From a virus (taxonomy: Duplodnaviria; Caudoviricetes), in IMG/VR virus record IMGVR_UViG_3300047409_000439, positions 1-63,781 of that record: DNA of 63,781 bases, one strand, 5' to 3'. A program made the translations under genes and the position numbers. Positions 62,102 through 63,781 of this stretch are shown in pieces. Below the pieces are notes generated by a model that was not told the origin of the DNA, searched no databases, and saw only the letters and a list, made by a program, of their open reading frames with translations. Positions within the stretch are counted from its first letter, which is position 1. Each line of letters opens with the position of its first letter.

Positions 62102-63064
62102 ATGAGCTTGATGCTTCCGCGCCTGATCGACGACCTGCTGGGCAGGGTCAACCGCTCGCAGCTGATCAAACTCCCTGGCAGCGAGTTGATGATCCCGGAG
62201 TTCGTCGCGTTGGCCCGCAAAGCGGAAAAGTTCAGCTTCGGGGAAATCCCTCTGGAGCTGGACCCCGACCCGGCACACGCTATTAATGGCCGTCCCATCT
62301 GGATTCAGCCGATGATCACCAAGGTCGAACATGAGGCCTGGGACGAGGGGCTGATCCCTCTGCCCGCGCCGGTCTGCTGGTTCGAGTTCATCCTCGGGGG
62401 CGAACCCTCGGGCATGCTGGTCCTCAAGACCCATCGCGACATCAAGGTCCAGCGGGTCGATTACGAGCCCAAGAAGGGAACCGGGGTCTTTACCGGAGTT
62501 TGGGTCGAGCGCTCGGAAGCGGAGCTGGACAAGGAGCTGCGGCTGAATACCAGCAACGGCGCGTCCTACTTTCAGCGCGGCGACCAAATCTATCGCGCCT
62601 CCGGGCCGCAAAAGGCTTTGGACTTTATTGCCTTGGCCAAAAGCAAAGGGACCAAGGTCCTGAACCTCGCGGCGGACCATTACCTGACCATGTACCTGAC
62701 GCTGATGCTGTACTCCTCGACGACGGAATTCCAGCAACAGGAAGCCCCGGCAAAGCTCAACAAAGCACGGGTCAAATCCGGGCATGAGCCGTTGCCGCCG
62801 CATCGTATCGTAACCATCGTGCCGGGGCGCTACCTGGAAAGGAAGGAGGCGCAAGGCGGCACGCATGCCAGCCCGCGCCTGCACTGGAGGCGTTCACACA
62901 AGCGCCATTTCGATCATCAGACCGGCAACGCCCGCTGGCTCGGGAACGAGGTCTACAAGGGACAGACCGGATGGTATGTTACCATCGTGCCGCGCTGTCT
63001 GGTAGGGCTGGCGGAGCTGGGCGAGGTCAGTCATGAATATCGCATTCAACATCCGAACCAATAG
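62102..63064 (+). CDS. Hypothetical protein with HASPRLHWRRSH motif, abutting array 1
   Basis: 320 aa; stop codon lies in the first spacer of the array. Confidence 0.75.
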   Translation: MSLMLPRLIDDLLGRVNRSQLIKLPGSELMIPEFVALARKAEKFSFGEIPLELDPDPAHAINGRPIWIQPMITKVEHEAWDEGLIPLPAPVCWFEFILGGEPSGMLVLKTHRDIKVQRVDYEPKKGTGVFTGVWVERSEAELDKELRLNTSNGASYFQRGDQIYRASGPQKALDFIALAKSKGTKVLNLAADHYLTMYLTLMLYSSTTEFQQQEAPAKLNKARVKSGHEPLPPHRIVTIVPGRYLERKEAQGGTHASPRLHWRRSHKRHFDHQTGNARWLGNEVYKGQTGWYVTIVPRCLVGLAELGEVSHEYRIQHPNQ

Positions 63065-63574
63065 GTATGTGTCAAACCAAGTACCTAGCGTGAACCATGA
63101 TGAGGGCGTTAAACCATCGTCCGCGAGTGAACCATCGAGCCTGCGTTAAACCATGATCTGGGAGTGAACCAATACCGAGACGTTAAACCAAACGCGGAGC
63201 GTGAACCATAAGCCCTGTGTCAAACCCCGACGAAAGAGTGAACCAAACTATGAGCGTCAAACCATGCAAGGAGCGTGAGCCAAGAGCCCCGTGTCAAACC
63301 AATCATGGAGTGCGAGCCCAGTACAGCGTGTCAAACCAAGCACCGGGAGCGATCCAAGGAAAGGGAGTCAAACCGGGCCGTTAGTGTGAACCAAATTCCA
63401 TGAGTCAAACCAAGCAGAGCAAGTGAACCATGGAACTTGCGTCAAACCAATACGATGGAGTGAACCAATATCGACGAGTCAAACCAAATTGTTAGCGTGA
63501 ACCAATTTTATGGCGTTAAACCAAAGGGAATGTGTGAACCAAATCGGCAGTGTCTTAAACCAACTAAACGGAGT
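63054..63574 (+). ncRNA. TIGR-like dual-repeat guide array 1 (13 units plus a degenerate 14th)
   Basis: GT[CT]AAACC at 63071, 63108, 63145 ... 63515 (exact 37-nt period), alternating with GNGTGAACC; 9-nt spacers. Confidence 0.92.
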
Positions 63575-63580
63575 GTTACT

Positions 63581-63781
63581 ATGACAACAGCATTCGATCC
63601 CATTACCAAATTAAGCAAGGACCTCAAAAGCGCCAGCGTAACCTTGGGCGCGGACGAGGCTCGCTTCCTCGTCGATGCCTATTACATCATGCAGGAGGAC
63701 CGCAAGCGCTCCTACAATCAAGAGCGGGCGCTGATTGCCTCCGCCGAACCGCACGACATCATCTCCTGGTTCGCCGCCGAG
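63581..63781 (+). CDS. tasA: TasA-like protein, 5' part (continues across the junction to 727)
   Basis: ACGGAG RBS; ATG at 63581 (MTTAFDPITKLSKDLK...) is in frame with ORF 20-727 through the terminal repeat. Confidence 0.85.
   Translation, partial: MTTAFDPITKLSKDLKSASVTLGADEARFLVDAYYIMQEDRKRSYNQERALIASAEPHDIISWFAAE
63670..63781. repeat. Terminal direct repeat (circular assembly overlap), copy 2
   Basis: Matches 1-112 with one mismatch. Confidence 0.95.

Follow-up and report, generated by a model that had tools for sequence, protein, structure and literature searches.

Positions 1 to 63,781 of IMG/VR record IMGVR_UViG_3300047409_000439, a single contig that is analysed here from end to end and is referred to as the window, come from a virus of the Caudoviricetes (Duplodnaviria) and carry a tas gene, tasA, with an array of short, regularly spaced repeats on each side of it. 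The locus as a whole is best explained as a dual-repeat TIGR-TasA locus with 47 tigRNA units of 37 nucleotides (nt). We hold this reading with high confidence, and the bare identity of the locus as TIGR-TasA with marginally more.

Anatomy of tasA and its two arrays

The gene and its arrays, read directly from the DNA, occupy the following positions.

63581 to 63781, + strand: tasA, first 67 codons, the last of them altered by a mismatch at 63779 (PHROG 4285, E 0.0024)
1 to 727, + strand: tasA, codons 31-271 and stop, in frame from base 2 (matches to NF052498, to PDB 9mty and to TasH)
63054 to 63580, + strand: TIGR array 1, made up of 14 dual-repeat units at a period of 37 nt, ending in a 3'-truncated edge repeat
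725 to 1952, + strand: TIGR array 2, 33 units with a 37-nt period and the repeats of array 1, its first edge 5'-truncated and its last edge 3'-truncated

The two stretches of tasA are one gene. Bases 63670-63781 are identical to bases 1-112 save one base at 63779, which is a terminal duplication of 112 nt, and an independent Logan contig of 63,624 nt from run X1, which may be the source sample, extends 733 nt beyond the end of the window. The preliminary description of this DNA had proposed that the window break splits a single tas gene and that the two ends join, and the X1 contig indeed passes across the junction. The genome map is therefore circular or circularly permuted, of about 63,669 bp, with one gene at the break: tas spans 63581 (its ATG) to 63669 and resumes at base 1, closing with the TGA stop at 725-727 after 271 codons. 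The sequence was present in nine runs, all labelled soil metagenome and none of them recorded as an RNA run, and the contig is apparently a complete soil-phage genome of roughly 63.7 kb.

Each unit of the arrays consisted of an edge repeat, GNGTGAACCA (10 nt), an 8-nt spacer A, a loop repeat, GNGTYAAACCA (11 nt), and an 8-nt spacer B; the half-units of both arrays were placed by means of hand-checked anchors. Together the arrays comprised 47 units (14 + 33) flanking tasA, all on the + strand. Tandem Repeats Finder reported periods of 18-19, 37 and 74 nt in 725-1899 and 63090-63487. Over 45 internal edges and 47 loops the repeat positions carried 1.1-2.0 bits of information and the eight spacer positions 0.0-0.3 bits, with the exception of the first spacer position, which was A/T-biased. 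The two kinds of repeat share their 5' GNGT and 3' AACCA ends. When the unit pattern was searched with up to one mismatch, all 40 matches obtained lay on the + strand inside the arrays, and none was expected (100 shuffles).

The preliminary description had listed array 1 as 14 units with the repeats of array 2 and a degenerate end, and its units and cores could be mapped in full over 63054-63580. Edge cores begin at 63054 (CGAACC, 5'-truncated) and 63091 and continue to 63535, and loop cores run from 63073 to 63556; the cores were exact in 10 of the 13 internal edges and in 14 of 14 loops, and the array closes with a degenerate 3' edge, GAGTGTTAC, at 63571-63579. Contigs from three other soil runs (X2-X4) covered array 1 in pieces and showed no differing letters. 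The arrays start with CGAACCA (63054) and cccTGAACCA (725) and end with GAGTGttac (63571) and GTGTGcaacg (1944), so that both open with an edge lacking its 5' half and close with an edge lacking its 3' half. A 5'-truncated first edge and a 3'-truncated last edge are the boundary rule reported for such arrays (Faure 2025, PMC12045711).

Gene boundaries are fused to all four array ends, as had been claimed. The last codons of the upstream gene orf320 (...CCG AAC CAA TAG) hold the truncated first edge of array 1 (63054-63060), and its TAG stop (63062-63064) lies inside the first spacer of the array, which is spacer A of unit 1. The degenerate last unit of array 1 supplies the ribosome-binding site of tas, AACGGAG at 63567-63573, at the junction of spacer B and the truncated edge and 7 nt 5' of the tas ATG. 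In the first TGAACC repeat of array 2, the TGA (725-727) doubles as the stop codon of tas. At the other end of array 2 the last truncated edge decays into the ribosome-binding site of the next open reading frame, GGAG at 1953-1956, which adjoins that edge and stands 6 nt 5' of the ATG at 1963. AACGGAG also precedes the start codons after six of nine promoter-like sites described below, and it therefore looks like the usual ribosome-binding site of the phage. In our reading these tight overlaps follow the family's usual array boundaries in a compact genome.

No 8-nt spacer was common to array 1 and array 2, even when one mismatch was allowed, which extends the earlier statement that no identical spacer is shared. 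Within array 2 there were three identical spacer pairs that the preliminary description did not mention (3B=5B, 21B=23B and 17B=21A; sites at 813-917, 1335-1352, 1464-1500 and 1557-1574). The mean under the null was 0.05 pairs, and 0 of 500 column shuffles reached three. In each case only one half of the unit was common, and one pair crosses the A and B positions, a pattern which suggests that these arrays change by recombination or duplication of half-units. As a separate observation, when the two spacers of each unit were compared, spacer A matched the reverse-complemented spacer B over a run of at least 4 nt in 11 of 47 units, compared with 4.65 ± 2.0 for shuffled pairings (12 of 2000 permutations reached 11). 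The signal was weak and its offsets varied, and the longest run was 6 nt, in unit 1 of array 1. In Faure 2025 the two spacers of a unit are reported to show no obvious covariation.

The tasA product

The tasA product belongs to the Tas family by curated profile. NCBIfam NF052498 (TIGR_Tas_endo, an equivalog) matched with an E value of 6.8e-48 and 163.5 bits against a cut-off of 100, over positions 5-212 of a profile of 215. Among the sequences of solved structures there were matches to TaTasR (9mty, E 1.2e-14) and to SpTasH (E 2.8e-7). NCBIfam names the family 'TIGR-Tas system RNA-guided endonuclease' although the tasA product is without a nuclease domain, and some relatives bear weak PF02371 (IS110-type transposase) labels.

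A structure model was made on a stand-in, P0001, a full-length relative that is 88% identical (20 aligned rows). The model had a predicted local distance difference test (pLDDT) score of 86.7, and its N-terminus consisted of three long helices. When it was compared with the PDB by Foldseek, the top ten matches, with E values from 3e-8 to 1e-6 and TMq 0.54-0.65, were all chains of TasH or TasR, and the IS621 recombinase came next. The model points to a Nop-type fold with a coiled-coil dimerisation region, like that of the solved TasR and TasH. The product is TasA, the nuclease-less subtype, because 271 amino acids (aa) are too short to add a nuclease domain and because the N-terminus is taken up by the three long helices. 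Pfam found no RuvC or HNH domain in the 271-aa product, and the alignment with TasH begins at chain residue 116 of the latter and at residue 36 of the 241-aa fragment encoded at the start of the window.

In the HMMER alignment Tyr226 and His233 of this fragment, which are Tyr256 and His263 in full-length numbering, were placed opposite Y289 and H296 of SpTasH, described as its catalytic residues for pre-tigRNA processing (PMC13421893). In the family alignment A1 the His was nearly invariant; of the 20 rows that extend over the Tyr, 18 kept it and two had Trp instead. The processing pair is thus conserved, and catalysis by it is predicted.

Related loci and known systems

Homologues of the tasA product numbered 3089 at E <= 1e-3, the best of them 88% identical. 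A scan of genome contigs gave no match with the single protein and 23 loci with alignment A1. In all, 63 related loci were compared, of which 57 were distinct, at 38-59% identity; pairs with matching layout and offsets were counted once (L013/L001, L020/L004, L031/L005, L035/L006, L025/L007 and L028/L027). In the related loci examined the array period was 36 nt. Their arrays had the layout seen here with different repeat sequences, and lay beside tas and not beside replication genes.

The preliminary description had called for the locus layout to be compared in related phages, and both of its features recurred. Of the 57 distinct loci, a periodicity detector found 17 with an array adjoining the tas start and 22 with one adjoining the tas stop; seven had arrays on either side of the gene (L004, L015, L021, L043, L047, L055 and L059). 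L006 is an eighth two-sided locus by eye, its downstream array having been missed by the detector; these layout counts are lower bounds because the detector is crude and misses weak arrays and because many flanks are short. Among the 45 loci with a readable end, the tas stop codon was fused to the (A/G)CCA box-C half of the first edge in 16, compared with about two expected by our own arithmetic for the motif. The overlap of the stop codon with the array is a recurrent trait of the family, and we found no statement of the fusion in the TIGR-Tas literature examined. The loci with a fused stop are:

L003, L004, L008, L009, L011, L015, L019, L021, L026, L043, L044, L047, L050, L054, L059, L061

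The genes around tas behaved differently from the arrays. When nine neighbours, including those for DUF932, orf320, orf53 and the primase, were sought near tas in the 63 related loci, only orf95 was matched, in L033. This argues against an evolved link with the replication operon: tas and its arrays behave as a self-contained module, and the link to replication genes is local. A role for orf320 as a conserved Tas partner was considered and rejected, no homologue standing beside tas in the 63 loci.

The closest likeness is to the dual-repeat TIGR-TasA system of Flavonifractor plautii, FpTIGR (PMC12045711), which has a solo Nop-domain Tas, two alternating repeats ending in CCA and two spacers per unit. 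The comparison was made with the published description of that system. The locus here has 47 units, whereas 'most often 5 to 15' are reported (Faure 2025). The letters of its box D (GNGT) differ from the 'UG' of TaTasR, and divergence of this kind occurs (Faure 2025). TaTasR (9MTY) was the best match among solved-structure sequences, including a C-terminal GH-DYI-PP stretch, but it carries a RuvC domain and needs a host factor for processing (Faure 2025), whereas the TasA here is without RuvC. SpTasH of Salicola phage CGphi29 (9W03, 9W04 and 21KL; PMC13421893) is, like this TasA, borne by a phage, with a homologous Nop domain (Foldseek E about 3e-8) and the aligned Tyr and His. SpTasH, however, is a DNA-cutting protein with an HNH nuclease at its N-terminus, while the TasA here is without one, and the two are only about 21-26% identical.

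Nuclease-less proteins are also represented by the MbTasA and catalytically dead TasR repressors, which repress transcription at guide-matched sites (Xu 2026, bioRxiv 10.64898/2026.09.09.750476). The repression assays of that study used MbTasA and CsTasR; CsTasR binds a stem-loop, whereas the locus here is dual-repeat. The tasParB-tasA operons share with this locus an array between an upstream gene and tasA and a further array downstream (Faure 2025), but orf320 has no match to ParB or to any other family. CRISPR arrays likewise combine tandem repeats with variable guides and are processed to unit-length RNAs that direct a protein to DNA. In CRISPR loci the repeats measure about 25-36 nt, the spacers are of comparable length and cas genes are present, whereas the repeats here are of two kinds and 10-11 nt long, with 8-nt spacers; the two spacers of each guide would pair with opposite strands, and there is no known adaptation machinery. 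No cas family was found among the neighbouring open reading frames scanned (60385-63781 and 1-8270).

The novelty of the layout implied by the preliminary description was overstated. Arrays are already described 'upstream and/or downstream' of tas, and in tasParB-tasA operons upstream, downstream and between the genes (Faure 2025), and as 'flanking both sides' of tas and reaching into its coding sequence (Xu 2026). Here only a stop codon and a ribosome-binding site of tas overlap the arrays, while in the systems of Xu 2026 the arrays reach into the tas coding sequence itself. The locus is a complete example of a published architecture and no new kind of system. Its departures are small: the 37-nt unit, the 11-nt loop repeat, the 8-nt spacers, the want of terminators and the 47 guides.

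Transcription, guide targets and competing readings

The locus lies between a block of early genes and the replication module, in the following setting.

60871 to 60899, + strand: nearest upstream promoter-like site (P7 of the preliminary description), TTGACA, 4 nt, then AACAGAGTATCTCTA
60950 to 62041, + strand: gene of a phage/plasmid-like protein (DUF932 / TIGR03299), the nearest gene 3' of the promoter-like site (Pfam PF06067, E 7.9e-44; NCBIfam TIGR03299, 215 bits, cut-off 110.7)
62040 to 62085, + strand: GC-rich stem-loop without a U-tract, between the DUF932 gene and orf320 (-39.4 kcal/mol, z -2.97; 2 of 200 shuffles as stable)
62102 to 63064, + strand: orf320, 320 aa, no family match (Pfam, PHROGs and NCBIfam negative)
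1963 to 2124, + strand: open reading frame for a 53-aa hydrophobic protein directly after array 2, with no terminator between them (family and terminator scans)
2127 to 3164, + strand: primase-like gene, start of the replication module (PHROG matches in the module: PHROG 47, E 1.1e-26, and PHROG 947, E 2.5e-28)
4647 to 5702: clamp-like factor gene, replication module
5706 to 8270: UDG-exo-PolA gene (Pfam DNA_pol_A, E 1.1e-42)

The 15-mer AACAGAGTATCTCTA occurred nine times within 56254-60895 (up to two mismatches; 0.01 expected). Eight of the copies were on the + strand, two of them in tandem at 56782-56811, and TTGAC stood 3-4 nt 5' of the 15-mer in all except the minus-strand copy at 57805. 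In six of the nine, AACGGAG and a start codon followed 30-45 nt 3' of the 15-mer. The set resembles a group of related early promoters that have an operator in common. The site at 60871 is called by resemblance to this consensus, a strict sigma-70 scan having made no call there, and no copy of the motif was found after 60895.

The preliminary description had named promoters or terminators isolating each array as the observation that would count against it, and no sigma-70-like site or strict terminator was found on the + strand over 60310-63781 and 1-4000. Because no promoter-like or strict terminator site stands between 60871 and 4000, the simplest reading is a single transcript from 60871 that would take in the DUF932 gene, orf320, array 1, tasA, array 2 and the primase, clamp and polymerase genes. 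This is plausible, though co-transcription and separate promoters cannot be told apart from sequence alone (Xu 2026). The hairpin at 62055-62072 lacks a U-tract, as had been noted, yet it is part of the larger stem at about 62040-62085. That stem may be a terminator without a U-tail, an attenuator, or an element of processing or stability. An Rfam scan of the window returned tRNA only.

Expression, processing and repression are proposed by analogy with characterised systems. The arrays would be transcribed on the + strand by read-through from the early promoter-like site at 60871 into the replication genes. Each tigRNA unit would comprise half an edge, the 8-nt spacer A, the loop repeat, the 8-nt spacer B and half of the next edge. 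The nuclease-less Nop-domain TasA, expected to act as a dimer, would bind each unit through the 5' GNGU and 3' (A)CCA motifs of both repeats and cut the precursor within the edge repeats by means of its Tyr/His pair, releasing guides of about 37 nt. The two spacers would act together, each pairing with a different strand of a target some 16 bp long, where TasA could act as a roadblock, stopping transcription or replication and leaving the DNA uncut. RNA-guided repression has been demonstrated for MbTasA (Xu 2026).

The guides found no targets in the phage itself. With both 8-nt spacers of each unit, both strand geometries and gaps of 0-6, and with the arrays masked in the de-duplicated genome, there were no exact matches, one match with one mismatch (array 1 unit 8, at 55043) and 19 with two mismatches; about one match at up to one mismatch is expected by chance according to our own arithmetic. 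Regulation of the phage's own genes by perfect guide matches was therefore rejected. A search of all 63 related loci (287 kb) likewise gave no exact match and seven with one mismatch, compared with about 4.3 expected, several of the seven being attributable to unit 13, whose spacers are short, or to redundancy among the loci. The likely form of a target is spacer A in the sense orientation followed by the reverse complement of spacer B, given the overhang geometry in Faure 2025. Since its own genome holds no guide match above chance, the targets should lie elsewhere, probably in the host or in competing mobile elements. A 16-nt target pattern gives many chance matches in public collections (Xu 2026). 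Relatives of the tasA product occur in metagenome-assembled genomes of Acidobacteriota, Proteobacteria, Chloroflexota and others, and given this spread over several phyla they point to no particular host. The window had no DNA match in a set of 50,697 phage records, and the only protein match there was to Salicola phage CGphi29.

Several observations weigh against the identification of a working dual-repeat TIGR-TasA locus. Pfam itself gives no Nop match for the tasA product, PHROGs files its family as 'transposase' (phrog_4285, E 4e-42), and the Tyr/His assignment relies on an alignment to TasH of only about 21% identity. The unit is 37 nt long (10 + 8 + 11 + 8), whereas dual-repeat systems have units of 36 nt with 9-nt spacers, described as 'uniform 36 nt' (Xu 2026); repeats of 8-12 nt are allowed (Faure 2025), and we therefore read the 37-nt unit as a variant and not as an exclusion. 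Repeats are imperfect in array 1 units 7-9 and 14 and in array 2 units 11-13, 27 and others. No rho-independent terminator follows either array in scans to 4000, nor was a stable structure found after array 2 (z +0.5); such terminators are typical of array ends and not obligatory (Faure 2025). Finally, the stem at 62040-62085 may attenuate transcription and so limit read-through from 60871.

Among the alternatives, the one that survives best couples guide maturation to gene expression. TasA would cut the edges that bracket its own open reading frame and stay on the last unit of array 1, thereby trimming or repressing its own mRNA and separating it from the replication genes. The placement of the tas ribosome-binding site in spacer B and the truncated edge of that unit, and of the stop inside the first edge of array 2, fits such a scheme, as do the conserved Tyr/His pair and the want of any promoter-like or strict terminator site in the locus. 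The 16 fused stops among 45 loci hint that selection has favoured a defined 3' end of the tas mRNA, and a link between tigRNA maturation and Tas translation has been raised (Xu 2026). Processing, however, needs full edge repeats (Faure 2025), and the edges that touch tas are truncated; the neighbouring genes are not conserved, and the overlaps may be mere compaction. Most relatives are without an upstream array, and feedback through array 1 therefore cannot be general. On balance we consider the coupling unlikely. Autoregulation of tas, for which our search of the TIGR-Tas literature found no paper beyond the remark in Xu 2026, is possible at similar or slightly longer odds. Somewhat more doubtful than the coupling is a regulatory design in which edge cleavage and TasA bound to the unit bearing the ribosome-binding site set the dosage of TasA and gate read-through to the replication genes. 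If it were true, the guide array would double as a processing-dependent leader.

A comparably doubtful alternative is that the arrays and tasA are separate units with promoters of an unrecognised kind, or that array 1 is a decaying, non-functional remnant. The scans were for the sigma-70 consensus only, which may not be the promoter type of the host, and the limit on deciding co-transcription that is set out above (Xu 2026) applies here as well. There is little space for separate promoters, however: array 1 begins inside orf320 and ends 1 nt before the tas ATG, which leaves no intergenic room. Decay could be read from the degenerate edges of array 1 units 7-9 and from unit 14, whose spacer A is 10 nt long and whose loop repeat is altered, but the exact cores of 10 of 13 internal edges and 14 of 14 loops and the agreement of the pieces from three other soil runs speak against it. 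That the repeats act as DNA, as iterons or as sites for a replication or partition protein, and not as guide RNAs, is very improbable: periodic short repeats are typical of phage origins and the arrays lie directly 5' of the primase, clamp and polymerase genes, but the exact dual-repeat TIGR architecture adjoins a protein above the curated TIGR-Tas cut-off, 40 of 40 pattern matches are on the tas strand, and in the relatives it is tas, not the replication genes, that has arrays of like layout and other repeat sequences next to it.

Three further features of the surroundings were recorded. The gene at 5706-8270 is a single open reading frame of 854 aa in which a domain of the uracil-DNA-glycosylase superfamily is joined to a 3'-5' exonuclease and to a DNA polymerase of family A. 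Directly 3' of it, at 8271-8346, lies a gene for tRNA-Ile (anticodon TAT). The GC content was 0.52 in 1-2000, which holds tas and arrays, compared with 0.56-0.62 in the rest of the genome, and that region has a strong A-over-T skew.

The description of TIGR-Tas systems dates from 2025, and the loci known so far are mostly found on fragmentary contigs from metagenomes. The dual-repeat TIGR-TasA locus reported here adds no new principle; it is a natural test case, with an apparently complete genome, 47 guides, arrays in both positions and a TasA that keeps its processing residues, placed after a block of early genes that have a promoter-like motif in common and ahead of the replication module. 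It also carries a caution for annotation, since the gene is split by the contig ends, missed by Pfam, called a 'transposase' by PHROGs and an 'endonuclease' by NCBIfam. The locus can be used to study how arrays and tas are expressed and, once the host is known, what a phage TasA silences.

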